A stretch of 64,000 nt of DNA from Candidatus Bathyarchaeota archaeon (lineage in GTDB: Archaea; Thermoproteota; Bathyarchaeia; Bathyarchaeales; Bathycorpusculaceae), in contig CAVZIW010000003.1 of assembly GCA_963775465.1 (NCBI GenBank), forward strand, positions 192,001-256,000, written 5' to 3'. Position numbers and translations under genes: made by a program. Positions within the stretch are counted from its first letter, which is position 1. Each line of letters opens with the position of its first letter. Below the pieces are notes generated by a model. That model was not told the origin of the DNA and searched no databases. It saw only the letters and a list, made by a program, of their open reading frames with translations. This document shows, piece by piece, positions 5,963-28,974 of this stretch.

Positions 5963-7357
5963 CTATTTCCTTCTCAGCTTAAGTTTAATGTTTGCAATGA
6001 AGTGCATGCCAACAATAATGGCAGTTGAAAGCTTGAATCGTCTACTTTTCTCAAGGAAGTATGCTCTCCGTAGATAGTAATGGTGGAATGCACCTTCACG
6101 TAGCTTACCCAGCTCCTTCATGCTTAGATGTGGGGTCTCAAAAATTGGTCTGGTAGTGTCGTAGAGATCAAAGTCGGTTACTCGGAGCCAACCATTCTCT
6201 TTAACTATGTCATACATAGGTGTGCCTGGGAACGGTGTGGCCACATTGTAGAAGCCGACAGCGTCGGGAGCAACTTTCTCAACGAATTTAATGGTGCTCC
6301 AAGCGCTTTCTTTAGTTTCACCTGGAAAGCCAAGAATAACGTTTGGCACAGGTTTCATACCGACTTCTCTTACCCAGCTAAGTACCTTCTCAGTCAAATC
6401 CGGGGTAATACCTTTTTTCATAGCATCTAAAACTTGCTGCGTTCCAGATTCAAGACCGCACCAGAACGAGACACACCCCGCTTCTTTCATTTTCGCTAGC
6501 AACTCTTTGGTAACCATGTCAACGCGGCTTCCGCAATTCCATTCAATCTTTAACCCGCGCTTGAGAATTTCATTGCATAATACTTCGGTTCTTTCTTGGT
6601 CCACAGTGAAAGCATCATCACAGAACGTAAATTTTCTGATACCATACGTTTTATACAAAAACTCTAGCTCGTCAACGACGTTATGTGGGCTTCGCATTCG
6701 ATATTTTCGCCCATGCATCCGCACTGTTGTACAGAACTCACACCAATAAACGCACCCTCTGCTGGCTGCTAAGTAGAGTATGTCTTCAAGTTCACGGAAT
6801 CGTTCCATTGGCCAAAGGTGTCTTGCAGGAAATGGCAAACTATCTAAGTCCTCAATGTAGGGGCGGTCTGGATTCCGCAAGATTTTGCCGTTTGCTCGAA
6901 CTGTTGTACCTATAACATTTAGGTAACTTTTACCGGCTTCAATTCGTTGAACTAGCTCTAAAAGAGTATTTTCTCCTTCTCTCCTCACGACCACGTCAAG
7001 TTCAGGGCATTCTTCAAGTGCATGATCATCCCAAAAAGTAACATGTGGACCACCCGCAACTATTACAGCGTTAGGTAAAGCTTCTTTTGCGATTTTTATA
7101 AGCTTTAAACCGGTTTGATAAGTCAACGTCGACGAAGTGACCCCAACAATGTCTGGTTTGCGCTTGCTTATTTCAGTGCGAAAATCCTCAAATGACAGTT
7201 TCAGTATCTGGCAGTCGATAACGTCAACTTGATAACCGTTTTTCTCTAAGACCGCTGCCAAGTATCCTAAACCAAGAAGTGCAAATGGCATATGCATGGC
7301 GGCGCCAATTGGCGCAGCAGGGTTAACTAGAGTTACGTGAGGTTTCATTGAGTTCAC
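5963..7357 (-). CDS. Cobalamin-binding (class B) radical SAM protein
   Basis: LGLGYLAAVL, GGPHVT and REGE motifs plus SRGCVYWCEFC; clear paralog of the gene at 1-987. Confidence 0.92.
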   Translation of the reverse strand: MNSMKPHVTLVNPAAPIGAAMHMPFALLGLGYLAAVLEKNGYQVDVIDCQILKLSFEDFRTEISKRKPDIVGVTSSTLTYQTGLKLIKIAKEALPNAVIVAGGPHVTFWDDHALEECPELDVVVRREGENTLLELVQRIEAGKSYLNVIGTTVRANGKILRNPDRPYIEDLDSLPFPARHLWPMERFRELEDILYLAASRGCVYWCEFCTTVRMHGRKYRMRSPHNVVDELEFLYKTYGIRKFTFCDDAFTVDQERTEVLCNEILKRGLKIEWNCGSRVDMVTKELLAKMKEAGCVSFWCGLESGTQQVLDAMKKGITPDLTEKVLSWVREVGMKPVPNVILGFPGETKESAWSTIKFVEKVAPDAVGFYNVATPFPGTPMYDIVKENGWLRVTDFDLYDTTRPIFETPHLSMKELGKLREGAFHHYYLRRAYFLEKSRRFKLSTAIIVGMHFIANIKLKLRRK

Positions 7358-7565: not shown

Positions 7566-8378
7566 TTGCTCCAAGACCAAACACTAAAAGAACAAATCCA
7601 CCAAGCCAACATCGAAGTCCATCGGTCTGAAGCAAAATATTATGAGGCATTACATCCAGAAGTTTACAGCAAAAAAGAACAAAAAAGAATATGGGAAACC
7701 CTTGGTGCCATAGACAAACAAATCACAGGCACCAAGAAAAATGCCTTGGATATTGGGGCAGGAACAGGTAACCTAACTAGCAAGCTTCTGTCGCTAAGGT
7801 ATAAGGTAACAGCAACTGACATTTCACCTGAAATGTGCGAGATTCTACGGAAGAAATATCGCGCTTACATACCTAAACATTTGACGATAGTTAATTCCCC
7901 TATTGAAGAATTAGCTTTTGACGAGGATAAATTCGATTTAATAACTTCCTATTCTGTTCTTCATCATCTTCCTAATTATATTTCGGCTTTAACAACTCTA
8001 GTAGGTTACCTGAAAGACGGAGGAATAATTTACATTGACCATGAAGCTTCCCCCTCGTATTGGAAAGGGGAACCCAGCAGTCTTGCCAGCTTTGTAAAAG
8101 CCATCTATTTCCACTCTAACCCAACAATCAACGCTCTGTACTTCCAAATTATCGGCTTGAAAGTACCCGTAATCGATTACACATTATCAGATTACTGGCA
8201 CAAGAAAGAACACGCTCTAAACCACCAAGAAATTGAACAGGTATTCAAAGAAGCACGGTTCACCTCCTACAAAAGAATGGACCATTACCTCCATGCAACA
8301 TGGCTTCCCAACCCACTTTCAATTGTTTATAGACTTTTATGCAGTCCTGAAATGAGTTACTGGATAGCAAAGAAATAA
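7566..8378 (+). CDS. Class I SAM-dependent methyltransferase
   Basis: LDIGAGTG, DISPEM and FDLITSYSVLHHL motifs. Confidence 0.88.
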   Translation: MLQDQTLKEQIHQANIEVHRSEAKYYEALHPEVYSKKEQKRIWETLGAIDKQITGTKKNALDIGAGTGNLTSKLLSLRYKVTATDISPEMCEILRKKYRAYIPKHLTIVNSPIEELAFDEDKFDLITSYSVLHHLPNYISALTTLVGYLKDGGIIYIDHEASPSYWKGEPSSLASFVKAIYFHSNPTINALYFQIIGLKVPVIDYTLSDYWHKKEHALNHQEIEQVFKEARFTSYKRMDHYLHATWLPNPLSIVYRLLCSPEMSYWIAKK

Positions 8379-8612: not shown

Positions 8613-9989
8613 ATGATTCTTTTGATGACAACTGCTCCGCCTGAAAGTGGCGCATGGTATCTCGGTAAGCGGTTGCCTCCAATCGGCTTAATGTATGTTG
8701 CCGCAGCATTGGAAAAAGCTGGTTTTGAAGTGCAAATGCTCGACAACTACCTTATGAAGAAACCTGTGGAAGAAATTAGGCAATTAATCGTTAAAACTCA
8801 ACCCCAAATTGTAGGCATAACCTGCGGATCCGCTACATATCCAAAATGTATTGAGACTGCCAAAGTCATCAAAGAAGTCAAACCAGACTGTAAAATCGTC
8901 GTCGGTGGATGGCATGCATCATACCTACCCGACAGTCTCCTCGATAACCCTGAAATAGATTATGTGGTATTGGGCGAAGGCGAACGCGCAATTATTGAAC
9001 TCGCAAACGCTATCACCAACGGAACTGAAAAAGAAGCAGAGACTATCGCTGGTGTTGCCTGCAAACGCAACGGATCAAACATCAAAAACCAACCCGTTTT
9101 TATAGAAAACATGGATGAAATCCCCTATCCAGCAAGACATTTATTGCCTCTGGAACTCTACGATAGAACCATAGAGTATCTAGACGTCAAACCAGCAGAT
9201 GTTATGAGCATTAGTCGAGGCTGTGTCTTTAACTGTGGCTTTTGCGAAACGCGAAAACTCTGGGGTAACATGTGTCGAGGCTTTAGCCCGCAGCGGATAG
9301 TTGGTGAAATTAAAGACCTGCAAAGTAGGTATGGCACAAAAGGGATCTATTTCATCAATGACAACTTTACGCTCAGAAAAAAAGAAACGACTGAACTCTG
9401 TAATTTAATGCTTAAAGATAAGTTAAATCTAGAATGGGTATGTGACACACGTGTCGACTTGGTCAACGATGAACTTTTAGCATTAATGAGCAAAGCAGGT
9501 TGCAAGACAATATGGTTTGGTGTGGAGTCAGCTTCTGAGAGCGTTCTGCAACGAATCGGCAGAAACACAAAACTAGAGCAAGTTGAAACAGCCTTTAAGT
9601 TATGCAAGAAAAATCATATAAAAACCGCTTGCAGCTTCATGCTCGGCTTGCCAGGTGAAACTCTCGCGGATATGGAAGCCTCTTTGCAATTCGCCAAAAA
9701 AATCGATCCCGACTGGTGCCAATTCAACACATTCATAGCTTATCCTGATAGTCGTCTCTACAATGAACTGCTGGAGAGCGGAAAGTACGTGAAGCTTGAC
9801 GAGTTCTTGCTCAGCGTTAAGAGTGACGAATACACTTACGAGGATTTGCAGGCTATCCAGCGACGTTTTTTTAAAGAATTCCACATGACACCGAGGCAAA
9901 TTCTCAAACGTGTTCGCCGAGAAGGTGCCTTGAATTTTGCCAAACGAAGACTTTTGGGTGGCACACGTAAGACTTCTGGAATGGCTTGA
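8613..9989 (+). CDS. Cobalamin-binding (class B) radical SAM protein
   Basis: PPIGLMYVAAAL, GGWHAS and GEGE motifs plus SRGCVFNCGFC. Confidence 0.92.
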   Translation: MILLMTTAPPESGAWYLGKRLPPIGLMYVAAALEKAGFEVQMLDNYLMKKPVEEIRQLIVKTQPQIVGITCGSATYPKCIETAKVIKEVKPDCKIVVGGWHASYLPDSLLDNPEIDYVVLGEGERAIIELANAITNGTEKEAETIAGVACKRNGSNIKNQPVFIENMDEIPYPARHLLPLELYDRTIEYLDVKPADVMSISRGCVFNCGFCETRKLWGNMCRGFSPQRIVGEIKDLQSRYGTKGIYFINDNFTLRKKETTELCNLMLKDKLNLEWVCDTRVDLVNDELLALMSKAGCKTIWFGVESASESVLQRIGRNTKLEQVETAFKLCKKNHIKTACSFMLGLPGETLADMEASLQFAKKIDPDWCQFNTFIAYPDSRLYNELLESGKYVKLDEFLLSVKSDEYTYEDLQAIQRRFFKEFHMTPRQILKRVRREGALNFAKRRLLGGTRKTSGMA

Positions 9990-11172: not shown

Positions 11173-12291
11173 TTACTCGTTTTCAATTAGTATCTGCTTT
11201 ATTTTTTCGACAAGTTGTTGGTTGTCTTTTTCCGAACGAATTGTGACGCGGAAGTGACTGTTATCCATTCCCATGAAAGTGCAACAATCACGGATTAGGA
11301 TATGATCTTTGGCGAGCAGTTCTTTGAGCATTGTGGAATTGGTTTTATCATTCAGAATTTTGACCAGGATGAAATTGGTTACTGATGGATAGATATATAA
11401 TCCTGGAATTTGGCCTAGTTTTTGGGCGAGGATTTGGCGGTTTTTGGCGATAGTTTGCTTGGTGTTTTCGATGAATTCAATATCATTAATAGCTGCCATG
11501 GTTACTTGGCAAGCTAAGCCGTTGATGCTCCAAGGCAGTCGCTTGTCTTCAAGTTTGGCAACTAAATCTTGTGCTGCCAAAGCGTAACCAAAACGGATAC
11601 CCGCCATACCATAGAATTTAGTAACTGAACGGATAACAAAAAGATTCTCGTAGTCTTCTACCATACCAGCCAGTGTGTCCTCCAAGCTTTTGTTGTCAAA
11701 TTCGATATAATTTTCGTCCACACTAAAGATAATGTCTTTTTTGTTGCAAAATTTAACCAAGTCGAGGAGCTCTTCTTTGCTGTAGAGCTTGCCAGATGGA
11801 CTATGAGGATTGCAGAGACACATAATTTTTGTGTCGTCGGTAACTGCCTCTTTTATTTTGTTTAAATTAAGACTAAAATCCTCTGGCAGCTGAACAAATA
11901 TTGGTACACCATTTACCCGAAGGGTTGCTTTCTCATATTCCGAAAATGAGGGAACAGGAATCACTGCTCCATGCCCACGTGGCAAAATTTCAGTTATCAT
12001 ATATATGAGTTCGATGGATCCATTACCCAGTAGCACGTTTTCTTCTCTAATGCCACAGCCAACATATTTGGCGATTTCAGTTTTGAATTCAACTGGGTTT
12101 GGGTCGGGATAGAATTTTATCAGTTTAGAATTCTGCTTTACGGCTTCTACAGCTTTAGGTGAAGGTCCGAGGAAGTTAATGGGTCCACTGAATTCGAGTA
12201 CTTCTTCAAGGGGTATTTTGTATTTTCTGCTAAATCCCCAGATGTCACCACCGTGGCTGACGAATCTTCGTTTTTTACATGTGCTCGACAA
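11173..12291 (-). CDS. cobD: L-threonine-O-3-phosphate decarboxylase (CobD/HisC-like class I PLP enzyme)
   Basis: N-terminal HGGD, YPDP, CNPHSPSG and RSVTKFYGMAGIRFGY (PLP lysine); other cob genes nearby. Confidence 0.8.
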   Translation of the reverse strand: MSSTCKKRRFVSHGGDIWGFSRKYKIPLEEVLEFSGPINFLGPSPKAVEAVKQNSKLIKFYPDPNPVEFKTEIAKYVGCGIREENVLLGNGSIELIYMITEILPRGHGAVIPVPSFSEYEKATLRVNGVPIFVQLPEDFSLNLNKIKEAVTDDTKIMCLCNPHSPSGKLYSKEELLDLVKFCNKKDIIFSVDENYIEFDNKSLEDTLAGMVEDYENLFVIRSVTKFYGMAGIRFGYALAAQDLVAKLEDKRLPWSINGLACQVTMAAINDIEFIENTKQTIAKNRQILAQKLGQIPGLYIYPSVTNFILVKILNDKTNSTMLKELLAKDHILIRDCCTFMGMDNSHFRVTIRSEKDNQQLVEKIKQILIENE

Positions 12292-12293
12292 CT

Positions 12294-12827
12294 CTATGTC
12301 TCCATTAATCTTGCAATTTCTTTCTCTACCAGTAAGTGAGCTTTAAAGTGTGCGTTGTATAAGTTCACGACTTTGTATAGCCAGTAAACTGCGCCAACGC
12401 CTAGCGTAATTATTGTTATTGCAGCAAATGTTTTTATCGGTATTGTCTGAGGCATAAACATCCGTTCTGGAAACGCAACTGCGAGAAAGGCATCTTGGTC
12501 GCTTTCATGCAACAGCAAGTCTCTTGATAACCTGTAAAGAATGAAGAAAATGGGTATTACAAAAATTATGCTGGCTGCCCACGCCTCTGGGTTCATTCCC
12601 TTAACTTCTCGGCTTTTAATTGGTGCCTCTCTTCCTTTGCTTTTCAGATAAGTCACAATCTGCGTTTCTAACATAGTTTCCTTTTCGAAATGCCTGTTTC
12701 TGCTCTCAACTAAACGATAAAACATGGGAAAAAAAGCTATGCCGAAAGTTACTACTGCGCCAAGGAACCACATGGAAAACCACACCTTTCTGTCAGGACA
12801 AATTCTATTGTTCATAGCGGTTTCCAT
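12294..12827 (-). CDS. DUF4234-like membrane protein, co-oriented upstream of cobD
   Basis: Repeated 'VVTFGI/IITLGVGAVYWLYK...N.H' pattern and several TM segments. Confidence 0.6.
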   Translation of the reverse strand: METAMNNRICPDRKVWFSMWFLGAVVTFGIAFFPMFYRLVESRNRHFEKETMLETQIVTYLKSKGREAPIKSREVKGMNPEAWAASIIFVIPIFFILYRLSRDLLLHESDQDAFLAVAFPERMFMPQTIPIKTFAAITIITLGVGAVYWLYKVVNLYNAHFKAHLLVEKEIARLMET

Positions 12828-12895: not shown

Positions 12896-13612
12896 TTGGC
12901 AATTAAGAATAAAATGAGCCGATCTTCAATGCTGCTTTCCATCATAATTCCCGTGTTTAACGAGGAATTGACAATAGGCAACATAATTGACCGCACCAAA
13001 ACATCGGCTGATCAGATTGGTGTGCAATATGAAGTTATTGTTGTGGATGACCATTCTTACGACAAGTCGCTTGAAGTTGCCAAGACACGCAATGTTCGGT
13101 TGTTGAGTTTAAAGCAGCATTTAGGGAAAGGCTGCGCTTTGAGAGCTGGGTTTGCCAAAGCTAAAGGGGACATTATTGTTACAATCGATTCTGACGCTTC
13201 CCATCGCCCCGAAGAACTCAGTGAAGTTTTGGAACCTATTCTGGAGGATGAAGCCGACTTAGTTATAGGCTCGCGTTACTTGAACCACAACAGCGTGGCA
13301 GCGAGAAAACTCAACGCATTTGGTGTTCGGATTTTCAATTATCTAATCCAGCTTTTTACAGGTGTTGGTATAACTGATTCCCAGTCCGGTTTCCGAGCAA
13401 TGAAGATTGAAGTATTGAAAAAGCAGAAATTGAAATCAGGCGAATATGAGATAGAATCTGAAATGTTAGTTAAGACTGCCAAACAAGGCTTTCGTGTAAC
13501 AGAAGTGCCGATTAGTTTTGAACAAAGGACTTATGGTAGGTCAGGTGTTGACCCAATGATAGACGGAGCCAAAATATTGCTATCCATAGTCTTTTCATAT
13601 GTGAAGGGGTAA
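12896..13612 (+). CDS. GT2 glycosyltransferase, polyprenol-phosphate mannose synthase-like (likely start ATG 12914)
   Basis: SIIIPVFNEE, VVDDHSYD, GKG, IDSD, IGSRY and DSQSGFRA motifs. Confidence 0.9.
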   Translation: MAIKNKMSRSSMLLSIIIPVFNEELTIGNIIDRTKTSADQIGVQYEVIVVDDHSYDKSLEVAKTRNVRLLSLKQHLGKGCALRAGFAKAKGDIIVTIDSDASHRPEELSEVLEPILEDEADLVIGSRYLNHNSVAARKLNAFGVRIFNYLIQLFTGVGITDSQSGFRAMKIEVLKKQKLKSGEYEIESEMLVKTAKQGFRVTEVPISFEQRTYGRSGVDPMIDGAKILLSIVFSYVKG

Positions 13613-13616
13613 ACAA

Positions 13617-14606
13617 ATGGCTGAAACTTCAACACCTAATGTTACAATTATTGTGGCAGCTTACAATAGCCAAGATACTATAGGGGAGTGCCTTAAATCC
13701 ATCTTGGCACAAAACTACCCCGCAAACGCATTAGAAATAATAGTTATGGACGGGGGTAGCAAAGATAACACTGTCAAAATCGCCCAACAGTTTCCAATTA
13801 AAGTGTTTTCAATTCGCCTTAACTGTCCAGCTGCTTACAACTACGCTCACAAAATCGCCAAATACTCGGTTTTAGGATTTATTGACGCTGACGCTAAAGT
13901 TGAAACAGAATGGCTTCAAAAACTTGTCTCTCATTTAAATGAGCAAAATGTGGTAGGTGTTAGCGGGAGTATTGAAACCTGGAACCAAGACAACCCATGG
14001 GCTAGAAGCATCGGATACGAACTAAAAAACCGCTACCACCGTATCGGCAAATACACAGGTCGAATTGCAACCATGAATCTGCTTATGAAAAAGGCTACGA
14101 TTGAAGAAGTAGGCGGATGGGATGAGAAGCTGCCCAGTCAATACGATACTGACCTTGGTTTTCGAATAAGTGCAAGAGGATACAAAATTGCTTATGACCC
14201 CACCGCACTCTGCTATCATTATAATCGTCCAACTTTGAAAGCATTTTATAGGCAACAGTTGCAGTATGGAAAAAACACCTTGAAACTTTATTTTAAACAT
14301 GGACGACTAGCAAGAGGCGACGAGATTACAGATGTAGGAATGAACATTCAGCCAATCCTGATTTTGGCAGCAGTGGTCTCTTTCCTATTGGGTATCCTTC
14401 CCCTGTTAAGGTTGCTCTGGGTTGCCTCTGGATTAATTTTGTTGGCGATGGTGGTTTACTTTATTTTTTCTGCAGCAAAGATCTCGCAAAAGTTTGGAGA
14501 CTGGTCGGCGATGCGTCTTTTTGTGCTTTACTTTGTTCGGTCGGGAGCATGGTTTATCGGCGCAACCATCACAACTTTGCGCTACCTAACTGGGAGTAGC
14601 AAATGA
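13617..14606 (+). CDS. GT2 glycosyltransferase with C-terminal membrane helices
   Basis: IVAAYNS, MDGGSKD, FIDAD, VGGWDE and YDTDL motifs; hydrophobic C-terminus. Confidence 0.9.
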   Translation: MAETSTPNVTIIVAAYNSQDTIGECLKSILAQNYPANALEIIVMDGGSKDNTVKIAQQFPIKVFSIRLNCPAAYNYAHKIAKYSVLGFIDADAKVETEWLQKLVSHLNEQNVVGVSGSIETWNQDNPWARSIGYELKNRYHRIGKYTGRIATMNLLMKKATIEEVGGWDEKLPSQYDTDLGFRISARGYKIAYDPTALCYHYNRPTLKAFYRQQLQYGKNTLKLYFKHGRLARGDEITDVGMNIQPILILAAVVSFLLGILPLLRLLWVASGLILLAMVVYFIFSAAKISQKFGDWSAMRLFVLYFVRSGAWFIGATITTLRYLTGSSK

Positions 14607-15802
14607 TGTCGCATAAGGTCTGCTTTATATCTCCTGAATACTGGCCCCTAACAGGAGGTACAGGAAGCTATGTCTATTACCTCACAAACGAACTGCTCAA
14701 AAACGGCTACCGAATCTATGTGGTTACAGGATCAAATCAAACACAAGACATACAAGTCAACCCTCAACTTGATGTTTCATTTCTAAAGATTCCTAAAATG
14801 CCCATAGTTAAATCCTTCATGCTTGCAGGGAACAGCAATCGCAAACTTCAAAGTGTACAAAATACTGCTAATGTCGACATTACTCATCCACAACTTCCCC
14901 TTACACCCAACTTCGCAGTGCCACCTAATTTTGGTAAAACTCTTGTTTGCACAGTCCACTCGACATGGAAAGGCGAAGCTAAAGCAATCCAAAGTGAGCC
15001 ATATACCCGCTTAAACCCAAATGAAAAATTCTTGGTTAGTTTCAACTGGTTTTTACGTTTTTTCGAAGAGGGCATGTTGCACCGGGCGAGGAAAATTATT
15101 GCAGTTAGTCACTTTACAAAATGGGAATTGATGAATTACTACAAAATTCCCGAAAGTAAAATCAAAGTTATTCATAATGGCGTGGACATTTTTAAGTTCA
15201 CCCCATCAATTGATAAACGCAAAATCAAGACAGAGCTTGGCTTTAACCCAGACGATCTGACAATCCTCTCTGTAGGTCGGTTATACGCTAGAAAAGGTTT
15301 GTTCACCCTCATTGAAAGCATGCCAGCAATCGTAAAAAGGTTCCCAAATGCGAAATTCATCATATCTGGCAAAGGGCAAAGCGACGAAATGCACAAACTC
15401 ATCACTCATGCGGAACTTCTAGGTGTTAAAAACAATATCATATTCACAGGCTATTACCCCGACAAGAAATTGCCAAAGCTCTATCAAGCCGCCGACATAT
15501 TTGCATTCTCTACATTTTATGAGCACCATCCCTTTGCGGTTTTAGAAGCGCTTTCAACAGGTTTACCAGTTGTAACAACAACTGTGGGCGGTATCCCTGA
15601 AACAATTGAAAACGGAAAAAATGGATTTCTCGTTAAGCCCTTCAATTCAAGTCAATTCGCCGACAGAATTTTATTTCTTCTTGAGCATCCGACGGAAGCA
15701 GCTGAGATGGGCAAAAAAGCCCGGCAGACAGTTGAGCAACAATTGGATTGGCGAATAGTTGTAAAAGATGCAATAAAAGTCTACAATGAAGTTTTAAGTT
15801 AA
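14603..15802 (+). CDS. GT4 (GT-B) glycosyltransferase
   Basis: IHNGVD, VGRLYARKG and EHHPFAVLEALSTGLPVV motifs; ATGA overlap with the upstream GT2. Confidence 0.92.
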   Translation: MMSHKVCFISPEYWPLTGGTGSYVYYLTNELLKNGYRIYVVTGSNQTQDIQVNPQLDVSFLKIPKMPIVKSFMLAGNSNRKLQSVQNTANVDITHPQLPLTPNFAVPPNFGKTLVCTVHSTWKGEAKAIQSEPYTRLNPNEKFLVSFNWFLRFFEEGMLHRARKIIAVSHFTKWELMNYYKIPESKIKVIHNGVDIFKFTPSIDKRKIKTELGFNPDDLTILSVGRLYARKGLFTLIESMPAIVKRFPNAKFIISGKGQSDEMHKLITHAELLGVKNNIIFTGYYPDKKLPKLYQAADIFAFSTFYEHHPFAVLEALSTGLPVVTTTVGGIPETIENGKNGFLVKPFNSSQFADRILFLLEHPTEAAEMGKKARQTVEQQLDWRIVVKDAIKVYNEVLS

Positions 15803-16761
15803 CCAACTTCGATTGATCTGCCCCGATACGCCATCGTAACTTTCTGAAAAAGTCTAACGATATCTAAAGAGCAGAAGAGAATTTTCGTTAGGTATTCATG
15901 CTGATAAACCATCATTTGAGCCTTTACTGGTAGGTCAATACGTGGAGGCTCAAAGCGGTGGGCAATTGAAGAAATGGGCAAACCTTCAACTCTGATTTTT
16001 TCTTCGAGAAAACCTGTTTTATTGGCGATGTACTGCAGATAAGTTTTTTTCCAATTAAGTTTCATGATTTTGGTAGCGATTATGTCGACTGCTAACGCAT
16101 CATCCCCAGTCAACATTAGGTTCATCTTGACTGGTTTGCCTTTTGTTGGTCCATTGCCCTCTATACCAGTTCGCGCATCCATTATCGTTAACTGTGGCTT
16201 AAATAGTGTGTAGATACGATAAAACACTTCAGGCAAGTATGGGTGGAGGTAGATGCGTTTGTTGCTGGGTACGCATCCAAACAGGTTTTTGATGGCGCCG
16301 CTGAAAACCATAAACTCGTGCGTTTTCATCAACGGCAAATCCACCACTGCATCAGCGTCAAGGATCGTTTTAGGTAGAAACAGGCGTTTAAGTGGTGTGT
16401 TACCTTGGAATTTTACTTCGACTACTTTGTCTTCGGATAGGTTTATTACGGTTCCACCTGCCTCTTTAACTGCAGCTTGTGTGCCGGTTTTGTCAAAAGC
16501 AGTCCAACAAGGGTAGTTGAATCCGTTGGATTCGCCAACAACTACTTCACTGTTACCATCTCTTAGTAACCCAACAAGTTGTTGCATGAGTTCTGGGCTG
16601 GTGACGACGCCGGGCAAGTATTCTGGATGGCTTAGGTTTGGTTTGATGAAGATTTTGCCTTTGCCTCGTAGCCCGGAATTAGCAACTGCCTTCTTCAAAA
16701 TGCTGCTTATATCATCTTTAGCGCGTAAGATTTTGACTGTTTTCTGCTGCTGCTCAAGCAT
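15799..16761 (-). CDS. DUF362 domain protein
   Basis: IKPNL, VVTSP, PLMKTH, SGAIKNLFG, GIEGNGP and DALAVD motifs. Confidence 0.85.
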   Translation of the reverse strand: MLEQQQKTVKILRAKDDISSILKKAVANSGLRGKGKIFIKPNLSHPEYLPGVVTSPELMQQLVGLLRDGNSEVVVGESNGFNYPCWTAFDKTGTQAAVKEAGGTVINLSEDKVVEVKFQGNTPLKRLFLPKTILDADAVVDLPLMKTHEFMVFSGAIKNLFGCVPSNKRIYLHPYLPEVFYRIYTLFKPQLTIMDARTGIEGNGPTKGKPVKMNLMLTGDDALAVDIIATKIMKLNWKKTYLQYIANKTGFLEEKIRVEGLPISSIAHRFEPPRIDLPVKAQMMVYQHEYLTKILFCSLDIVRLFQKVTMAYRGRSIEVG

Positions 16762-18178
16762 TTTTTGTTTTCACTCCCTGGAGGCAACCGGGGTCTCCAT
16801 TCAGCATGTCACCGTTATGGTATGCAGCTGATCGAGCTCGGCATCCGCCGCAGATAAACTTATAGTCGCATTTGCCACATGACCCTTTCAAATTAGCTCT
16901 GTTGCGGAACTTCTTGAAAAGGGGTGCGTTTAGCCAGATATCGTGAAACTTTTGGGATTTTAGGTTGCCGACTTTTACAGGCAGAAAAACACATGGATGC
17001 ATGTCTCCTTGTGGTGAGATCGAACAATATAGTCTGCCTGCTCCGCATCCGCCGATGAAATCACCAAGCGGCACAGCTTTCTTGGTAACTTTGACGGTTT
17101 GCATGTGTGCCATTGACATCGTGACTTCACCCGTGCCTCCTAAACCTTGACACTGCAAAGCCACTCGAGCCAGCTGCGGTGCAGTCGCAAGGATTGTTGT
17201 TTTACATCCGGCTGACATGCGGTTAAGTAAATAACGGAGAACTTCCTCTCGTTCCTTGGGTGACAAGTCTTGGTCAACATGTGCTTTGCCGCGTCCTGTC
17301 GGAATAAAATTAAAATAAGTAAATCGTTCAGCTTTGATGTTCTCTGCTAAATCGATAATAGCAGGTAACTCTGCCATGTTGTTTTTGCCAACAGTTGTCG
17401 CGATGCATACACACAAGTCGGCGTCCACACAATTTTTAAGTCCAGCTACCGCCTTTTCAAAGGTTCCGGGGACACCTCGGAAATCATCGTGTGTCTTGGC
17501 GGATGCACCATCGATGCTTACATCGATGTAGTTAACTTTTGCTGCCTTGATTTTTTGTACGTTTTCTTTGGTGAGAAGGGTGCCGTTTGAAGCGAGTGAC
17601 ACGTAGAGGCCACGATCGGAAGCATATCGTGCAACTTGGAAGAAGTCTTTGCGGGTTAAGGGTTCGCCGCCGCTAAACGCCAATGCCGTTACACCTGCAT
17701 CTGCAAGTTGGTCAACAACGGCCAACGCCTGTTCAGTCGTTAATTCCTGCTCTTGGATATCGCCGCTGTTGGAGTAACAGTGTTTGCAGACTAAGTTGCA
17801 TTTATGAGTGAAATCCCAAACAACCAGAAACGGCGCGGAAAGCGACATAGGTCTTTTAATGCCAAAATAAGCAAATGACCGAACTAAATTCAAAACGGCA
17901 GTCTGCGCATAGCGGTCAGCTAAAAGCTTCTTAACCTTTGCCCGCTTAAACCCGAGACTTCTGCGCAGAAACTCCACCCAAAAACTAATAACCTGAGAGT
18001 AGAAACCACTGCATTGCCCGCATTGTTTGTCTTTTTTGCTAGCGTAATCGTCAAGTGCTGCCTCCAGCACCGTTCTGCCGCATTTGGGGCATTTTTTTAG
18101 CGAGAGCTGGAGCATCTTTTTGGTCATAGGCAGAGAAATGACTGCATTCCAAAATATATCGTAGCTAAGGATGTTCAT
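16754..18178 (-). CDS. Radical SAM/SPASM protein resembling the GMGT synthase (Gms) family
   Basis: FGIKRPMSLSAPFLVVWDFTHKCNLVCKHC core, FIGGCGAGRLY...PCVFLP and CGKCDYKFICGGC SPASM domain, and an N-terminal extension with CPKC/CGQC. ATG 18178 preferred over 18268. Confidence 0.75.
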   Translation of the reverse strand: MNILSYDIFWNAVISLPMTKKMLQLSLKKCPKCGRTVLEAALDDYASKKDKQCGQCSGFYSQVISFWVEFLRRSLGFKRAKVKKLLADRYAQTAVLNLVRSFAYFGIKRPMSLSAPFLVVWDFTHKCNLVCKHCYSNSGDIQEQELTTEQALAVVDQLADAGVTALAFSGGEPLTRKDFFQVARYASDRGLYVSLASNGTLLTKENVQKIKAAKVNYIDVSIDGASAKTHDDFRGVPGTFEKAVAGLKNCVDADLCVCIATTVGKNNMAELPAIIDLAENIKAERFTYFNFIPTGRGKAHVDQDLSPKEREEVLRYLLNRMSAGCKTTILATAPQLARVALQCQGLGGTGEVTMSMAHMQTVKVTKKAVPLGDFIGGCGAGRLYCSISPQGDMHPCVFLPVKVGNLKSQKFHDIWLNAPLFKKFRNRANLKGSCGKCDYKFICGGCRARSAAYHNGDMLNGDPGCLQGVKTKNA

Positions 18179-19760: not shown

Positions 19761-20393
19761 TTAATCCCTAGAGAGCCTCTTTGTTCTTGTCATTATATTT
19801 TGGGCGATTTCAAGGTCTTTGGTTGTGTTGATGTTCAGGAGAAACTCTGTTTCTTCCGAGATTATTGCGCTTGTTTCAATTTTGCCTTCGCTTTGAATTT
19901 TAGTCCCGTTAATGATGTTGATTCCCGATACTGCATACCAAATTCCATTGTATTCATCGATTGAAGAAATCGATAGACCTGCGTCTTCTCTTGCTTTAAT
20001 TGGAACAAAAACCGCCAAAAAATCTTTTTTGCAGAATTCAAACTCGCTAACGATTTTGTCAAGACCTTTCCCTGTAATAGCTGGCACATCTGCTGGCAAC
20101 GTGAGCACTGGACCAGTCCAGCCCAGATTGAAAACCGCTTGCTTCAAATCATCATGGTAACCTTTGGCTTTGGTACGCAGGATTTTCCAGCCTTTGTTGC
20201 GACAGTGTTGCTCAGTTTCAGATGTATTACCGCTCGTGACAATATAGAATTCTGAAACATTTTTCGCGCTGGCAACTGCTTCGGCAACCCAGTCAATCAG
20301 AGGTTTGCCCAAAAACTGTAACATTGGTTTTTCAGACGACAAGCTCATCCTTTTTCCCATTCCGCCAGCCATTATCAAACAAGGAACCTTCAT
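19761..20393 (-). CDS. cobY: CobY-like NTP transferase (adenosylcobinamide-phosphate guanylyltransferase), copy 1
   Basis: MAGGMGKRM...EKP, ADVP, GINII and NINTTKDL motifs; overlaps cobS. Confidence 0.85.
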   Translation of the reverse strand: MKVPCLIMAGGMGKRMSLSSEKPMLQFLGKPLIDWVAEAVASAKNVSEFYIVTSGNTSETEQHCRNKGWKILRTKAKGYHDDLKQAVFNLGWTGPVLTLPADVPAITGKGLDKIVSEFEFCKKDFLAVFVPIKAREDAGLSISSIDEYNGIWYAVSGINIINGTKIQSEGKIETSAIISEETEFLLNINTTKDLEIAQNIMTRTKRLSRD

Positions 20394-21223
20394 GCGATCA
20401 CCATGAGTGCCAAGGCAAGTAAAACTAACGTTATAGCTCGTGCAACCTCGTTTGTTGCTCCAATCATATCACCTGAAACTCCGCCAAAAACATTGTATGA
20501 GACTTTTCGCATTCCAAATGCAACGGGAATACTGACTAAAACCATTCCAACACTCGCTAATCCCAAAACTAAGTTGCCGAAAAAGCCGAAGCAGGTGAAC
20601 GCTATCAATACGGCAATTGCATAAGCGGCGACGTTGAGTTTCTTTTTGGCTTTAGCAAGAAAAATTGAGCCTAAACCTTTATGTGATGGTTTGCCTGCCC
20701 AAATAATAGTTACCATTGAAAGCTTGGCCGAAACCTCAGCTGCAATAACCGCTCCGAATGCATACCCTGGATTCACTAAAAACAAGCCAGCAAACGCTAA
20801 AAACTCCACAGCTAACGCTAAAACTGCGCCTGCGTAAGTAACGGTCCAAGCATGAGCCTTCATTTTTCGGTCATGGACGTTTCGCAAACCAATAGCGTTG
20901 CCTAAATCGATTAAACCGTCAAAGTGTTGAAGCCCAGTTAAAACAGAGAGAAAAGCAATCGTCATGGCTGCAGGAATTAGGTTCCCTAGTACTGCTGTGG
21001 GCAAAGCAACAATATTTCCTGCTAACCCGAGAATAAACGAAACTACTATGTTTGAACCAATAAAATAAAATGCTCCAAGTAAACCAATAAAGCCGCCGAT
21101 TAACGGAAAAAGCCAAACATTCTCTGCTGTTGTCAAGATGAAGTCTTCTTTTCCTCCAACCGGTATGATGGTTAGGAAAGACAGCAAATCCCTAAAAGTT
21201 TTTATAGTTTTCACAGGCGACAT
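20390..21223 (-). CDS. cobS: CobS-like membrane protein (cobamide synthase), divergent copy 1
   Basis: LSFLTIIP, FPLIG, TGLQHFDGLID and GGVSGDMIGATNE motifs; lacks the DG and MxD..GxxG elements seen in copy 2. Confidence 0.82.
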   Translation of the reverse strand: MSPVKTIKTFRDLLSFLTIIPVGGKEDFILTTAENVWLFPLIGGFIGLLGAFYFIGSNIVVSFILGLAGNIVALPTAVLGNLIPAAMTIAFLSVLTGLQHFDGLIDLGNAIGLRNVHDRKMKAHAWTVTYAGAVLALAVEFLAFAGLFLVNPGYAFGAVIAAEVSAKLSMVTIIWAGKPSHKGLGSIFLAKAKKKLNVAAYAIAVLIAFTCFGFFGNLVLGLASVGMVLVSIPVAFGMRKVSYNVFGGVSGDMIGATNEVARAITLVLLALALMVIA

Positions 21224-21237
21224 ATAGCTTACAACTA

Positions 21238-21255
21238 CCTATATGAAAATATAGG
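21238..21255. promoter_or_regulatory. Perfect 7-bp inverted repeat CCTATAT-GAAA-ATATAGG in the very short divergent intergenic region; candidate bidirectional TATA box or operator
   Basis: The repeat is directly visible. Each TATA-like arm lies about 25-30 nt upstream of one of the two divergent start codons (21223 and 21272). Confidence 0.5.
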
Positions 21256-21271
21256 CTTTGTCGTGACTTGG

Positions 21272-22207
21272 ATGGCTGACCTAAAAGGAAAAAAAGTTAT
21301 GGTTACTGGCGGAGCAGGTTTTGTAGGTTATCACCTGTGTAATAAACTCCAAAATTTGACCGATGACTTAACGATTTATGATAATTTATCGAGCGGCAAG
21401 ATTGAGAATGTTAATGATGTTTCGAAAGCAAAGTTCGTGAAGGGTGACATACTTGACCTAACAGGTCTCTTTGACTTACCCAAACAGGATTTAATTTACC
21501 ATTTAGCTGCTCAGGTTGTTGTGCCGTATTCGATGGAGAATCCTATGATTGATTTTGAAACAAACGCCAAAGGCACGCTTAGCGTATTGGAGAAAGCCCG
21601 CAAAGATGATGCCAAACTGGTGTTTGCTTCTAGCGCAGCTGTCTATGGCAACCCAACCCAAATGCCAACCACGGAAGAGTACGGTTTTCATCCGGTTTCA
21701 TGTTATGGCTTATCCAAAGTTGTTGGGGAAGAATATTGCCAAATGTATAGTGAGCAATATGGTTTAGATGTTGTCATCACTCGGTTTGCTAACGTTTACG
21801 GATTGCGTTGCCATGGTGTTATCCATGATTTTCTTGACAAACTTGCTAGGAACCCCAATAAACTTGAAATCATCGGTACTGGTTTGCAGTCACGCGACCT
21901 TGTGCATATTTCTGATGTCGTTGACCTATTGATTACTGTTGGCTCGCTTCAATCAGTAAATGGAGAAACCTATAATGTGGGCTTGGGAAAAACAACCAAG
22001 ATCATAGACCTCGCAAAAATGATGCTAAAAATTCTTGGGCTTCATGACAGGACCCTGATCACAACTACCGGTGTATCCTGGCACGGCGATATTCACACTA
22101 TTTGGTTTGATAACTCAAAAGCAAAAAAAGAACTGGGCTGGAACCCAAAGGTCACCTTGGAAGATGCTATTAAAGAAGTCATCGCTGACAGGAAAATAAA
22201 GATATGA
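21272..22207 (+). CDS. NAD-dependent NDP-sugar epimerase/dehydratase (extended SDR)
   Basis: TGGAGFVG, SSAAVYG, YGLSK and RFANVYG motifs. Confidence 0.92.
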   Translation: MADLKGKKVMVTGGAGFVGYHLCNKLQNLTDDLTIYDNLSSGKIENVNDVSKAKFVKGDILDLTGLFDLPKQDLIYHLAAQVVVPYSMENPMIDFETNAKGTLSVLEKARKDDAKLVFASSAAVYGNPTQMPTTEEYGFHPVSCYGLSKVVGEEYCQMYSEQYGLDVVITRFANVYGLRCHGVIHDFLDKLARNPNKLEIIGTGLQSRDLVHISDVVDLLITVGSLQSVNGETYNVGLGKTTKIIDLAKMMLKILGLHDRTLITTTGVSWHGDIHTIWFDNSKAKKELGWNPKVTLEDAIKEVIADRKIKI

Positions 22208-23118
22208 GTACTGTCAAGCCAGCAAGAGGCCTGATAGCGCTTCTGCGACTTCCTTACTGGCTAATGACTGGTGGATTAGCAGTTTTAACGGCGTTTGCCA
22301 TCTTAAAAGGCGACTTTTCGAGCATACAAACCAATATAGGCAATATGGCTTTCGGTTTGGTTGCATTATTAACTTTTTTTTCCATGGCATTTATAGCTTC
22401 TGCAGGTTTTGCCATAAATGACTATTTTGATCGCGAAAGCGATGCAGTCATTAAACCTAGACGTCCTATTCCTTCAGGTGCACTCTCACTCAAACAGGTT
22501 GTATTTGTTTCCGGGGCACTTTTTGCGTTAGGATTGATTCTTTCATCATTCATAAATTGGCTTAGCTTTACTATCATTGCTATTGATTCACTTTTGCTGT
22601 TGCTTTACTCGTACATGGTCAAGAAGAAGTCAGGTTTTGCAGCAAACCTATTAATGGGGATTTTAACGGGTACCGCGTTTATTTATGGGCAAGCTACCAT
22701 TTCAGATACTATAAACTTAACTTCCTTTACACTTTATCCAATTGCGTTTGGCACCATTGGCGGCAACGTACTTCGAGACATTCTTAGCCTGGAGGGTGAC
22801 TCTAAAGTTGGATATCCCACGTTGCCACAGAAAATCGGGACAATTAGTGCAGCTAAAGTCGGAGCGATATTTTTTCTCTTAACAGGATTGTTAGCGCCCC
22901 TGCCAGCTATACCCTTCTTTGCGGGTCACTTCACAGTTTATTATTTGCCGCTCATTCTACTTTGGAGTATACTTTTAATCTATGCTTCTATACGTCTAAT
23001 GACTTCAGCTTCAACTGTGCAGAACATACGCAAATACGAACGTATCGTAACCATGTCGATGATATTGCTTCCTCTTGCGTTGATCATTGAAGCAGTCCTT
23101 GGGTGGCTATTAGCATGA
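22204..23118 (+). CDS. UbiA-family prenyltransferase, DGGGP synthase-like
   Basis: INDYFDRESDAVIKPRRPIPSG, degenerate second motif RDILSLEGD..GYPTLP, multiple TM helices. Confidence 0.85.
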   Translation: MSTVKPARGLIALLRLPYWLMTGGLAVLTAFAILKGDFSSIQTNIGNMAFGLVALLTFFSMAFIASAGFAINDYFDRESDAVIKPRRPIPSGALSLKQVVFVSGALFALGLILSSFINWLSFTIIAIDSLLLLLYSYMVKKKSGFAANLLMGILTGTAFIYGQATISDTINLTSFTLYPIAFGTIGGNVLRDILSLEGDSKVGYPTLPQKIGTISAAKVGAIFFLLTGLLAPLPAIPFFAGHFTVYYLPLILLWSILLIYASIRLMTSASTVQNIRKYERIVTMSMILLPLALIIEAVLGWLLA

Positions 23119-24662
23119 GTGAAACAAAAAGCATATGTCCTGAATGCCAAAAAAAAATCGATGCCCAATTAAGTCAAGCTAATGGCAAAATACAAATTAC
23201 TAAGCGATGTCCAGAACATGGAGACTTTAAAGCAACCCACTGGCAAAGTAAGCCCATATTTGAACATATGCAAAAATACGACCAATTCCAATATCTGGGC
23301 GACCTAAATGCACCCAAAAACCCTGATGGCTGCCCCTATAAGTGCGAAACCTGCACTCAACATGCTTCAGGCACGGTTATAGGCGTAATTGACGTAACCA
23401 AACGCTGCAACTTCAAATGTGCAGTTTGCTTCTCTACTTTTCCCCAACAAGACTCAGATTATGAACCAACAAGAGAAGCACTCGAAAATATGTTGATATT
23501 CGCAAGCGAAGCAAATCCTAAACCTCCAGCCATTCTCTTCTCAGGCGGTGAACCTCTTGAACGAGAAGACATGCCTGAAATAATCGCTACTGCTCATAAA
23601 CTGAAGTTCATGACTATTTTAGCAACTAACGGAACCCATTTAGTTGACACTCCTGGCTTAGCCAAGAAACTAAAAGACAGCGGTTTAAACATCGTTTATC
23701 TGTCATTTGATAGTTTTCATGAAGAATTCAACAAAAAAGTGCGGGGACTTGAGCTTGTTGACATGAAACTTAAGGCAATCGAAGTTTGCCGTAAATATGA
23801 TATGGAAATAATTCTTGTAAATACGCTCATGAAGAGCCTCAATGACAAAGAAGTTGGTGATATGATACGGTTCGCCGCCAAAAACACCGATATAATTAGA
23901 GGTTTAATCTTCCAACCCATCGCGTTTACAGGGAGAGCAACCGAAAATCCTTTCCGTGAAAACTTCCGCGAATGGAGCTTTGCCGAAGGTGTTGAAAAAC
24001 AAACTGATGGTGAAATAAAAGCTACTGATTTATATCCGATGTCGGTTATGACTTCGCCAATTAAAATTATGCGTAAATTCATGCAAAAACCTTGGCCGTT
24101 GTTCTCGTGTAGCCCACAGTGCGGTATAGTAAACTGGGTTTATGTTTCTAAAAACGGCAAAATGTTCCCAATAAACCGCTTCGTGAATTTTGACCGCTTC
24201 TTTAACAGCATTCGCAAGACCGCGGAGGCAGCTGAATCCAAAGGCAAAATGTCCTTGCTTTCGTCACTATTCATGGCATCTATGCTATCGATGGACATGT
24301 TCTTAGTTACAAAGGAAGTAGGAATGCCAACACTTGTTAAATCAATCATGCGCATGCATCTCTCACCATCGTACCAGTCGTTGGGAAAAATTCGACGCAG
24401 AATATTCCTGTTAGGCTGCATGGCCTTTATGGATTCTTTCAACTTTGACGTTAACCGCGTCCGCCGATGTGTAGTTCACTACATAACCCCTGACCTCAAA
24501 ATAATACCGTTCTGCGCCTACAACAATGTGCATCGAGTGGCTATAGAAAAAGAATACGCACAACGCCAAAGCAAAACCCAATCAAACTTACAATATACTG
24601 TTTCTAACACAAATTCTAATGAGATTACGCCAAACGCTAAACTGAAAAATACTCGCAAGTAG
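23115..24662 (+). CDS. tes: Tetraether lipid synthase (Tes / GDGT-MAS)-like radical SAM protein
   Basis: N-terminal CPEC...CPEHG, auxiliary GCPYKCETCTQH, radical SAM CNFKCAVC, and C-terminal MAFMDSFNFDVNRVRRCVVHY...IIPFCAYN. ATGA overlap with the UbiA gene. Confidence 0.85.
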   Translation: MSETKSICPECQKKIDAQLSQANGKIQITKRCPEHGDFKATHWQSKPIFEHMQKYDQFQYLGDLNAPKNPDGCPYKCETCTQHASGTVIGVIDVTKRCNFKCAVCFSTFPQQDSDYEPTREALENMLIFASEANPKPPAILFSGGEPLEREDMPEIIATAHKLKFMTILATNGTHLVDTPGLAKKLKDSGLNIVYLSFDSFHEEFNKKVRGLELVDMKLKAIEVCRKYDMEIILVNTLMKSLNDKEVGDMIRFAAKNTDIIRGLIFQPIAFTGRATENPFRENFREWSFAEGVEKQTDGEIKATDLYPMSVMTSPIKIMRKFMQKPWPLFSCSPQCGIVNWVYVSKNGKMFPINRFVNFDRFFNSIRKTAEAAESKGKMSLLSSLFMASMLSMDMFLVTKEVGMPTLVKSIMRMHLSPSYQSLGKIRRRIFLLGCMAFMDSFNFDVNRVRRCVVHYITPDLKIIPFCAYNNVHRVAIEKEYAQRQSKTQSNLQYTVSNTNSNEITPNAKLKNTRK

Positions 24663-24764: not shown

Positions 24765-25433
24765 ATGACTCAGAAGTTTGCAACGACAATACTTAAGGCG
24801 CTAGAGGATACGCTGGATTTGCCCAAACTCGTAGAAACTAACGCCGATCCATTTAAAACATTAGTCGTAACGATAATTTCACAAAATACTACCGATACCA
24901 ATACCGAACGTGCCTTCACAATTCTCTCCAAAAAGTTCGAAATTACTCCTAAAATATTGGCCAGAGCCCAAACAGGTGCTATTGAAGAATGCATCAAAAT
25001 TGCGGGACTTTGCAAAAATAAAGCCAAAACAATACAAAATGCCTCAAATACAATTATGGCGAAGTTTCAAGGTTCACTTAACCCCATCTTGTCTTTGCCC
25101 ATTGACGAAGCAAGAAATATTCTTATGGACTTACCTGGTGTCGGTCCTAAAACCGCAGACGTTGTTTTATTATTTTCTGCAAATAAACCCACTATTCCAG
25201 TCGATACACATGTGAATCGGGTTTCAAAGCGGCTTGGTTTGGCGCCATCTAACAGCGGTTACGAAGAAGTGCGCGCATGTCTTCAAGCAATATTCGAACC
25301 AAAAGACTACCTATCGGTACATCTGCTGCTGATTGCGCTGGGCAGAAAATACTGCAAAGCCCGTAGACCTCTCTGTCCAAAATGCTCCGTTAACTCCGAT
25401 TGCCCCAAAAACAGTTTAGGGGTAAAGCAATGA
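24765..25433 (+). CDS. nth: Endonuclease III
   Basis: LPGVGPKTA HhH motif, VDTHV, and a C-x6-C-x2-C-x5-C FeS motif. Confidence 0.93.
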   Translation: MTQKFATTILKALEDTLDLPKLVETNADPFKTLVVTIISQNTTDTNTERAFTILSKKFEITPKILARAQTGAIEECIKIAGLCKNKAKTIQNASNTIMAKFQGSLNPILSLPIDEARNILMDLPGVGPKTADVVLLFSANKPTIPVDTHVNRVSKRLGLAPSNSGYEEVRACLQAIFEPKDYLSVHLLLIALGRKYCKARRPLCPKCSVNSDCPKNSLGVKQ

Positions 25434-27364: not shown

Positions 27365-27554
27365 GCTTCCTTAATATTCATATCTGCTAGAACGTTTCTA
27401 AACACAGATCCTTCGTTGGCTTCAAAATGATTTTCGTCTTTTTTCCTGATGAACCCGCACTTTGTTATTCTTCTGCGATTGTTTGCCGAGTGCTTATATT
27501 TTTCAGAAACAAGGTGAACCCAGGTAAATTTGTAAAATAAAAGTTGCCTAATTG

Positions 27555-28199: not shown

Positions 28200-28274
28200 A
28201 AAGAAATCCTTAAAGTATACGTTTAAGTGCAAAACTCATTATTATCTTCAAGTTAATAATCCTGACGTGAAAAA

Positions 28275-28967: not shown

Positions 28968-28974
28968 TTAATGG

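Follow-up and report, generated by a model that had tools for sequence, protein, structure and literature searches.

A conserved Bathyarchaeales gene cluster links second copies of tetraether lipid enzymes to a cobamide synthase paralog

The described systems closest to the locus reported here are tetraether synthase (Tes), or glycerol dibiphytanyl glycerol tetraether (GDGT) and macrocyclic archaeol synthase (GDGT-MAS; MJ0619, PDB 7TOL/7TOM), digeranylgeranylglyceryl phosphate (DGGGP) synthase of Methanocaldococcus jannaschii (MjDGGGPS, PDB 6M31/7BPU; UbiA family PF01040), the enzymes of cobamide nucleotide-loop assembly (CobD, TIGR01140; CbiB, TIGR00380; CobY, TIGR00454; CobS, TIGR00317), the glycerol monoalkyl glycerol tetraether (GMGT) synthase Gms with its methylase Gmm (Garcia et al. 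2024, PMC11214058), and the butanetriol and pentanetriol dibiphytanyl glycerol tetraethers (BDGT and PDGT) of Methanomassiliicoccus luminyensis and Baizosediminiarchaeum. In methanogens, Tes homologs beyond the first have been described, of which MA_1114 gave only traces of macrocyclic archaeol. Here we analysed a 64,000-nt stretch of DNA (the window) from a Bathycorpusculum-type Bathyarchaeon, in which a trio of genes at 21272..24662 encodes an epimerase, a UbiA prenyltransferase paralog (UbiA2) and a tetraether synthase paralog (Tes2). UbiA2 and Tes2 are second copies beside housekeeping ones, and the trio is part of a conserved Bathyarchaeales cluster larger than itself, which also encodes a CobS paralog (CobS2). 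Judging from the sequences, we lean, with somewhat less than even confidence, towards a second, parallel tetraether branch in which CobS2 would attach the head.

The epimerase gene begins with ATG at 21272, and the original prediction held that ATGA overlaps at 22204-22207 and 23115-23118 link the three genes into an operon with non-canonical motifs. Both overlaps are present in the sequence, as are all the quoted motifs (NDYFDRESD and GNVLRDILSLEGD in the UbiA protein; CSPQC, CMAFMD and VVHY in the Tes-like protein). For comparison we used the 80 best-matching loci in GTDB, which are 65-99% identical to the window, are not independent of one another, and are labelled nearly all as Bathyarchaeia, several of them as Ca. 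Bathycorpusculum, with a few others. Of these loci, 67 retain a start/stop overlap (ATGA, GTGA or TTGA, not every GTG or TTG being a confirmed start) at the epimerase stop and 64 at the UbiA stop, against a genome background of 85 among 1151 long open reading frames (7%). The overlaps within the trio thus exceed chance.

A tblastn search of the genome, proposed as a check in the original prediction, found another UbiA (29% identical, contig C15) and another Tes (37%, contig C13), ruling out that the trio holds the only DGGGP synthase and Tes of this organism. Geranylgeranylglyceryl phosphate (GGGP) synthase and CarS are present as a single copy each, so the duplication covers selected steps only. 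The median dN/dS is 0.043 for Tes2 (287 pairs), 0.094 for UbiA2 (380 pairs) and 0.142 for CobS2 (799 pairs); the paralog clades are under purifying selection, and these values together with the fixed motifs rule out pseudogenes or drift. Nor are the motifs standard in the lineage, as MHF occurs in 20/20 housekeeping Tes and RE..KG in 20/21 housekeeping UbiA proteins. The view that these are specialised paralogs and not the housekeeping copies therefore stands: second copies exist, and the altered motifs, fixed throughout the paralog clades, are rare among housekeeping proteins.

Tes2 shares with GDGT-MAS the four-domain layout, the rubredoxin site and the N-terminal, radical S-adenosylmethionine (SAM) and C-terminal cluster ligands. 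It scores 463.9 bits against NF045702 (cut-off 450), where the housekeeping Tes on contig C13 reaches 672.7, and it matches 7tol with an E value of 2e-112; a low-confidence model (pLDDT 61) gives TM 0.75, to be taken as a fold match only. Its ligand residues are C8/C11/C32/H35, C73/C77/C80/H83 and C98/C102/C105, with the rubredoxin site, the N-terminal cluster and the CX3CX2C motif all present, and C77 shifted or replaced in a few members. M436 and Y456, the equivalents of M439 and Y459, are invariant in 12/12 together with C336/C452/C467, which are the presumed ligands of the C-terminal cluster. Apart from being a second copy in an operon with a UbiA paralog, Tes2 differs from GDGT-MAS by the absence of HxHC (100/100) and by MAFMD (100/100), MAF replacing MHF. 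The HPHC and MHF motifs expected in the original prediction fit the housekeeping Tes of this genome (HPHC, SMHF), and M. jannaschii GDGT-MAS reads HQHC in place of HPHC. In a quick tree, Tes2 forms one clade with support 100 on a long stem, splitting by host family, and among the best 120 matches of a protein search it has close Bathyarchaeia-type relatives only. GDGT-MAS binds head groups non-specifically, and its M439A and Y459F/L variants stay active (PMC9433317); hence the Tes2 changes mark the clade and identify no substrate. Furthermore, the changed residues are not those mutated in the GDGT-MAS study, so that their proposed use as a sign of an altered backbone falls away. A third Tes-related family (TrsS-like, 28-31% identity; L018, L019, L021) is sporadic in the order and adjoins methyltransferase or molybdopterin genes; these three rows were dropped from the group labelled 'tes1' before the housekeeping count of 20 was made.

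For UbiA2, MjDGGGPS is the best solved relative by sequence (~30% identity) and by fold, the two sharing motif 1, motif 2, D180 and D187. In the 6M31 alignment, the register of which is confirmed by F148 and S171, UbiA2 keeps the equivalents of N62/D66/D70/Y125/K130/D180/D187, and its N72, D76, D80, Y135 and K140 (motifs 1 and 2) are invariant in 13/13. It differs by D183 to S, R175 to G, E176 to N and the N-terminal RPxN to RxPYW; the full second motif, including S at D183, occurs in 107/109 members and RxPYW in 106/109. In MjDGGGPS, D183A strongly lowers activity, and motif 1 and motif 3 mutants impair GGGP binding (PMC9385802, which numbers motif 3 inconsistently, and whose mutant list is used here). 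The UbiA2 changes thus map to residues tied to GGGP binding, which supports specialisation of the paralog. Against NF009521, the NCBIfam model of DGGGP synthase, UbiA2 scores 151.6 and the housekeeping copy 178.3, both below the cut-off of 296. Of the motif 3 aspartates D180/D183/D187, UbiA2 fails at D183, whereas housekeeping Bathyarchaeal DGGGPS-type UbiA proteins lack D180 instead (20/21); motif 3 is therefore not a strict criterion in Bathyarchaeia. The departure of UbiA2 from the DGGGP synthase consensus, noted in the original prediction, is real, but the DGGGPS-type housekeeping copy on contig C15 departs from it too, reading REITKGIVDVKGD. These housekeeping UbiA proteins (L001:6486-7448; L153-L172) carry REIxKGIxD with G at the D180 position, a G found also in Odin- and Baldrarchaeia-labelled UbiA relatives; D180A lowers activity in the M. 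jannaschii enzyme (PMC9385802).

In a quick tree a long stem separates UbiA2 and a sister group from housekeeping DGGGP synthase, and UbiA2 is a subfamily of its own. The sister family (NVLKDxLTxEGD; L173-L246) comes from Halobacteriota-labelled metagenome contigs of peat or permafrost type, sometimes in tandem, and its neighbours are SAM methyltransferases, a geranylgeranyl reductase and TrmB-like regulators. Such a setting, together with a second UbiA2 motif that resembles chlorophyll synthase, brings up the alternative that the module makes a prenylated cofactor or electron carrier and not a bulk lipid, with UbiA2 acting on an aromatic or tetrapyrrole acceptor and Tes2 performing another C-C coupling. 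The island holds further radical SAM enzymes that resemble AhbD/HemN, none of the known quinone pathways was found in these archaea, and a Bathyarchaeal UbiA of another subgroup is reported to esterify bacteriochlorophyllide. We nevertheless regard this alternative as highly improbable, since DGGGP synthase is the nearest solved and modelled relative of UbiA2, Tes2 scores above the Tes cut-off and has retained the counterparts of M439 and Y459, and a Gms-like partner (see below) points to tetraether tails. The archaeal 'bchG' clone, belonging to a different UbiA subgroup, is probably not UbiA2.

Partners absent from the original prediction are CobS2 and CobY2, encoded on the opposite strand and more tightly linked than the epimerase, and the Gms-like enzyme. 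The cobS2-cobY2 pair points away from the trio and is back-to-back with it in 77 of the 80 loci, the other three ending at contig edges. The spacer between them measures 47-53 bp in 77/77 back-to-back loci, and a stretch reading ATATAGG..TTTGTCGTG recurs among the 25 spacers compared. It is likely a bidirectional promoter; a sigma-70 promoter scan, which does not cover archaeal promoters, gave no match. The epimerase, a short-chain dehydrogenase/reductase (SDR) that scores 164 bits against the GalE model (cut-off 262), lies upstream of ubiA2 in 80/80 loci. An ortholog was not found in 5/5 genomes of genera g9, g101 and g102 (92-97% complete), in which ubiA2-tes2 stands directly back-to-back with cobS2; their best SDRs reach 222-275 bits, like an unrelated GalE (251), as opposed to 458-602 for true orthologs. 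Four of the five are in the Tes2 tree and group together, so the absence is probably one loss. The epimerase is ruled out as a defining partner, being accessory and not core, and the idea of a sugar-derived backbone, which had been built on the coupled epimerase, is weakened, as these genomes keep the module without it.

CobS2 scores 101.5 against TIGR00317 (cut-off 110; canonical copy 151) and lies above the Pfam PF02654 cut-off. It has N for the last D of HxDxxxDxxD in 99/100, a replaced MHD motif and a median insertion of 18 residues before HxDxxxDxxN, yet keeps the H80, D82, D86 and D229 equivalents and GDxxG, with D252 and G255 of GxxGDxxG invariant in 12/12. The D89A variant of Salmonella CobS is inactive (PMC8092220). 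A canonical cobT-cobS-cobY set, in which CobS sits with CobT, lies elsewhere in this genome, and canonical CobS is present in 32/32 UbiA2-positive genomes; CobS2 is therefore not needed to finish an ordinary cobamide. All four nucleotide-loop families are represented in the module, which differs from the known pathway by this second CobS (D89 to N, no MHD, insertion) tied to lipid genes.

CobY2 is the only CobY in 8 of 10 relatives tested, namely the five genomes without the epimerase and three of genus g18, two of them single-contig, the remaining two, of genus g1, having two CobY. The second CobS in g18 is canonical (3/3). With one CobY for two CobS in eight genomes, the donor of CobS2 is likely to be GDP-cobinamide. 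CobD and CbiB are both doubled in this genome, the second CbiB lying on contig C8; the housekeeping-type cobD beside that cbiB1 is split over two frames in this assembly, by a frameshift or an assembly error (G000:C8:125797-126929; L104 7798-8929). The CobD2 ortholog is the best CobD in 5/5 relatives, above the cut-off in 2. Genome G277 encodes CbiZ, and both its single CbiB and its single CobD-grade gene belong to the cluster. No CobQ was detected in 5/5 genomes tested; B. tardum has been described as deficient in cobalamin synthesis (PMC10477458), and most B12 genes were reported as present in Bathy-6 (PMC11697101). At least in those salvaging genomes, CobD2, CbiB2 and CobY2 likely make real cobinamide-GDP, which CobS2 likely uses with a different acceptor. 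In 8/68 loci (L065, L074, L080, L082, L085, L090, L102, L103, L129/L130) the CobY adjoining cobS2 is of the other clade, and in G304 the positions of the two CobY genes are exchanged with respect to the CobS pair. This was left unused as proof of interchangeability, because an inversion that retained both genes would account for it just as well.

UbiA2 is present in 84 of 201 genomes of the order (86 matches), with a clean score gap, and Tes2-grade matches occur in 15/151 genomes of the class and 0/117 from other orders; the module spans more than ten genera. A search of the ESM Atlas gave clusters for UbiA and CobS only, with one UbiA match labelled Chloroflexota. Among 74 genomes chosen by UbiA2 status (32 positive, 42 negative), CobS2 and CbiB2 are each found in 31/32 positive and 1/42 negative genomes. 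In the single negative with CobS2 (G286), a contig end breaks the assembly inside the operon. A Gms-like ortholog accompanies UbiA2 in 30/32 and occurs in 1/42 negatives, with three weaker matches of 44-46% among the latter, and an ortholog of the B12-radical SAM enzyme at 8613-9989 is found in 27/32 and 1/42. The Gms-like enzyme is thus a third enzyme of lipid-tail type with the profile of the module. Its best NCBIfam model is AhbD (308 bits, cut-off 500); it combines an AhbD-like radical SAM/SPASM core with an N-terminal extension of ~115 aa, the architecture (with ~100 aa) described for Gms, and several B12-radical SAM enzymes lie nearby, as with Gms and Gmm (PMC11214058). The likeness is by description only, and the module differs in the accompanying second Tes, UbiA and CobS.

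While gene content, linkage, co-inheritance, motifs and selection are read from the genomes themselves, every reaction and product of the branch is what we infer from them. The geranylgeranyl chain transferred by UbiA2 would go to some acceptor that is not plain GGGP, as its fixed changes at acceptor-side residues suggest. Tes2, its ligands intact, would join the chain ends by ordinary GDGT-MAS chemistry, and the Gms-like and B12-radical SAM enzymes may cross-link or methylate its product. CobD2, CbiB2 and CobY2 would then provide an amide-phosphate activated with GDP. Since some salvaging genomes have no other copies of these enzymes, this unit is most likely GDP-cobinamide, made from salvaged corrinoid. 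CobS2 would couple it by a phosphodiester to a lipid hydroxyl, or to one on the sugar head of the lipid, and not to ribazole, the lipid being a putative acceptor suggested by linkage. The epimerase and one B12-radical SAM enzyme would be optional decoration. The product may be a lipid-anchored corrinoid, in which cobinamide is joined through the CobS2 phosphodiester to a cross-linked, glycosylated tetraether from a private DGGGP synthase/Tes/Gms set; we consider this possible, though somewhat unlikely. A donor other than cobinamide, within the tetraether-branch reading, appears decidedly unlikely.

Several observations weigh against a tetraether branch capped by CobS2. We know of no lipid-bound cobamide. 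In g18 a distance of 2-5 kb separates cobS2 from the trio, so the two are not back-to-back, and in G255 (88% complete) no CobS2 was found beside UbiA2 and Tes2. Because all carriers belong to one or two related clades, only a few independent events underlie the profile. Full-length UbiA2 relatives from outside the order score 150-265 bits in a representative search, and 72 of 74 metagenome loci of such relatives have no Tes or CobS nearby (neighbours include methyltransferases and a geranylgeranyl reductase, labels include Halobacteriota); the two exceptions are the Bathyarchaeal module itself. This type of UbiA fold can therefore work without CobS. Nor do the motifs prove a new substrate, because chlorophyll synthase is active with S at the D183 position, MjDGGGPS tolerates the other glycerol enantiomer (PMC9385802) and two housekeeping Tes also lack HxHC. 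Finally, 40/42 UbiA2-negative genomes have no CobS and 40/42 no CbiB match, so that the co-occurrence could reflect one island with B12 salvage for many B12-dependent radical SAM enzymes.

An alternative is that one island combines two unrelated functions. CobD2, CbiB2, CobY2 and CobS2 would complete another soluble cobamide, unusual in its lower ligand or linker, for the B12-radical SAM enzymes of the island, and co-regulated lipid isoenzymes (UbiA2, Tes2 and the Gms-like enzyme) would make ordinary or cross-linked, methylated glycerol tetraethers of GMGT type. It would accommodate CbiB2 passing the CbiB cut-off and CobD2 the CobD cut-off in 2/5 relatives, Tes2 above the Tes cut-off, one CobY serving both CobS in 8 genomes, and seven B12-radical SAM enzymes, CbiZ, a corrinoid protein and MtrH on the same stretch. 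BzaCDE homologs are reported in Bathy-6 genomes (PMC11697101), and many Gms and multi-copy Gmm2 homologs in Bathyarchaeota (PMC11214058). What it leaves unexplained is that cobS2 stays back-to-back with the lipid operon even after loss of the epimerase, that the acceptor-side changes of UbiA2 are fixed, and that CobS2 has lost the D89 equivalent. We think this account unlikely on the whole, and retain the CobS2-linked tetraether branch as our tentative reading.

The suggestion of a butanetriol or pentanetriol backbone, also part of the original prediction, is a live rival. In a BDGT/PDGT branch, a B12-radical SAM enzyme would methylate the head-phosphate carbon, UbiA2 and Tes2 would accept the methylated backbone, and CobY2 and CobS2, whose families normally handle a -CH(CH3)-O-phosphate end, would activate it and attach a head group; that end may resemble aminopropanol-phosphate. 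UbiA2 is present in 18/18 sampled genomes of g18, two g18 proteins fall in clusters labelled Ca. Bathyarchaeum, and strain M17C, which is Bathyarchaeum tardum, is counted as Baizosediminiarchaeum, the reported BDGT producer (PMC12694404), so that one producing genus carries the module. In BDGT the extra methyl is placed at glycerol C-3 and derives from methionine through a radical reaction, for which radical-SAM methylation is proposed (PMC11767167), and the UbiA2 changes lie in a motif tied to GGGP binding (PMC9385802). However, in Methanomassiliicoccus the methyl is described as added to finished GDGTs (PMC11767167), in which case no second DGGGP synthase or Tes would be needed, and the parts of this literature considered here name no BDGT enzyme. 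GDGT-MAS, moreover, binds heads non-specifically (PMC9433317). CobD2 and CbiB2 have no explanation, and the module has amide- and phosphodiester-forming enzymes superfluous for BDGT cores; no UbiA2 relative is labelled Methanomassiliicoccales, though most carry no label; and BDGT is reported for one genus, the module occurring in more than ten. We judge this rival quite unlikely.

Returning to the cluster that would encode the CobS2-linked branch, Table 1 lists its features in the window.

Table 1. Features of the module and its neighbours (window coordinates; loci are the 80 GTDB matches)
Feature	Coordinates	Strand	Remark
B12-binding radical SAM gene split over two frames in this assembly	2684..4139	-	two overlapping ORFs; single 495-aa open reading frame (ORF) in G090
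CbiB2, adenosylcobinamide-phosphate synthase family	4385..5410	-	TIGR00380 235.6 vs cut-off 165.9
B12-binding radical SAM enzyme	5963..7357	-	one of seven on contig within ~40 kb
Class I SAM methyltransferase	7566..8378	+	Pfam; near cluster in a distant genus
B12-binding radical SAM enzyme	8613..9989	+	missing from same five genomes as epimerase
CobD2, threonine-phosphate decarboxylase family	11173..12291	-	TIGR01140 269.7 vs cut-off 290.6
Small membrane protein, no Pfam family, adjoins cobD2	12294..12827	-	within 10 kb in 40/80 loci
GT2 glycosyltransferase	12896-13612	+	within 10 kb in 42/80 loci
Membrane GT2	13617-14606	+	within 10 kb in 44/80 loci
GT4 glycosyltransferase	14603-15802	+	within 10 kb in 49/80 loci
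DUF362 protein	15799..16761	-	Pfam; within 10 kb in 50/80 loci
Gms-like radical SAM/SPASM enzyme	16754..18178	-	AhbD-like, N-terminal extension ~115 aa
CobY2, adenosylcobinamide-phosphate guanylyltransferase family	19761..20393	-	solved relative CobY 2mzb/3rsb
CobS2, divergent cobamide synthase paralog	20390..21223	-	HxDxxxDxxD reads HxDxxxDxxN
48-bp spacer between divergent cobS2 and epimerase starts	21224..21271	.	putative bidirectional promoter
Extended SDR, NDP-sugar epimerase/dehydratase family, 311 aa	21272..22207	+	Pfam Epimerase/GDP_Man_Dehyd
UbiA2, DGGGP-synthase-like prenyltransferase paralog, 304 aa	22204..23118	+	own long-stem clade
Tes2, tetraether synthase paralog, 515 aa	23115..24662	+	cofactor ligands all kept

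The three glycosyltransferases (12896..15802) lie near the cluster in distant genera too. In most relatives a GT4, a GT2 and a DUF1616-like membrane protein stand tail-to-tail with tes2 (L105 8425-10907; L004 3592-6001); that GT2 and GT4 are found in 61/80 loci, and all three lie 40 kb away in this genome. At 10350-10940 (+) the aldo-keto reductase frame falls short of its counterparts in relatives, which measure 363-372 aa in G316 and G090. The island continues upstream of the window (G000:C3:162817-193059; L124, L125) with four more B12-radical SAM enzymes, two AhbD-like SPASM enzymes, a HemN/HutW-like enzyme, CbiZ, a corrinoid protein with MtrH, SAM synthetase and an RnfD-FrhB fusion, several of which recur near the cluster in G090, G219 and G304. 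After tes2, positions 24765-29511 encode endonuclease III, an XPD helicase, RadB and the single CarS; the last (28975-29511) was rejected as part of the unit, being near in only 9/80 loci.

We conclude that this is a real, conserved and undescribed gene module built of known families. The module is not described in the Bathyarchaeia literature on tetraether synthase, butanetriol lipids and BDGT, radical SAM enzymes, or cobalamin and CobS, in the parts considered here, including PMC11868695, PMC13003381, PMC8941075, PMC3930316, PMC10988981 and 10.1101/2025.10.20.683597, although some of its genes may appear in Fig. S10 of PMC11697101 and in the PMC11214058 datasets.

The carriers are archaea of soil, gut and sediment. 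Many soils, peats, digesters and marine sediments are dominated by Bathycorpusculum- and Bathyarchaeum-type archaea, whose lipids serve, or have been put forward, as biomarkers. A co-inherited second tetraether pathway would offer a short gene list for an unknown lipid, together with candidate enzymes for the BDGT question. The module is open to experiment, since a carrier genus is available in enrichment culture and one lipid enzyme of Bathyarchaeal origin has already been expressed in Methanosarcina and Thermococcus. A CobS paralog acting on a lipid, if true, would bring new chemistry to a family whose known role is confined to making cobamides, and a lipid-anchored corrinoid, if true, would be a B12 analogue tethered to the membrane and would represent a new class of archaeal lipids.

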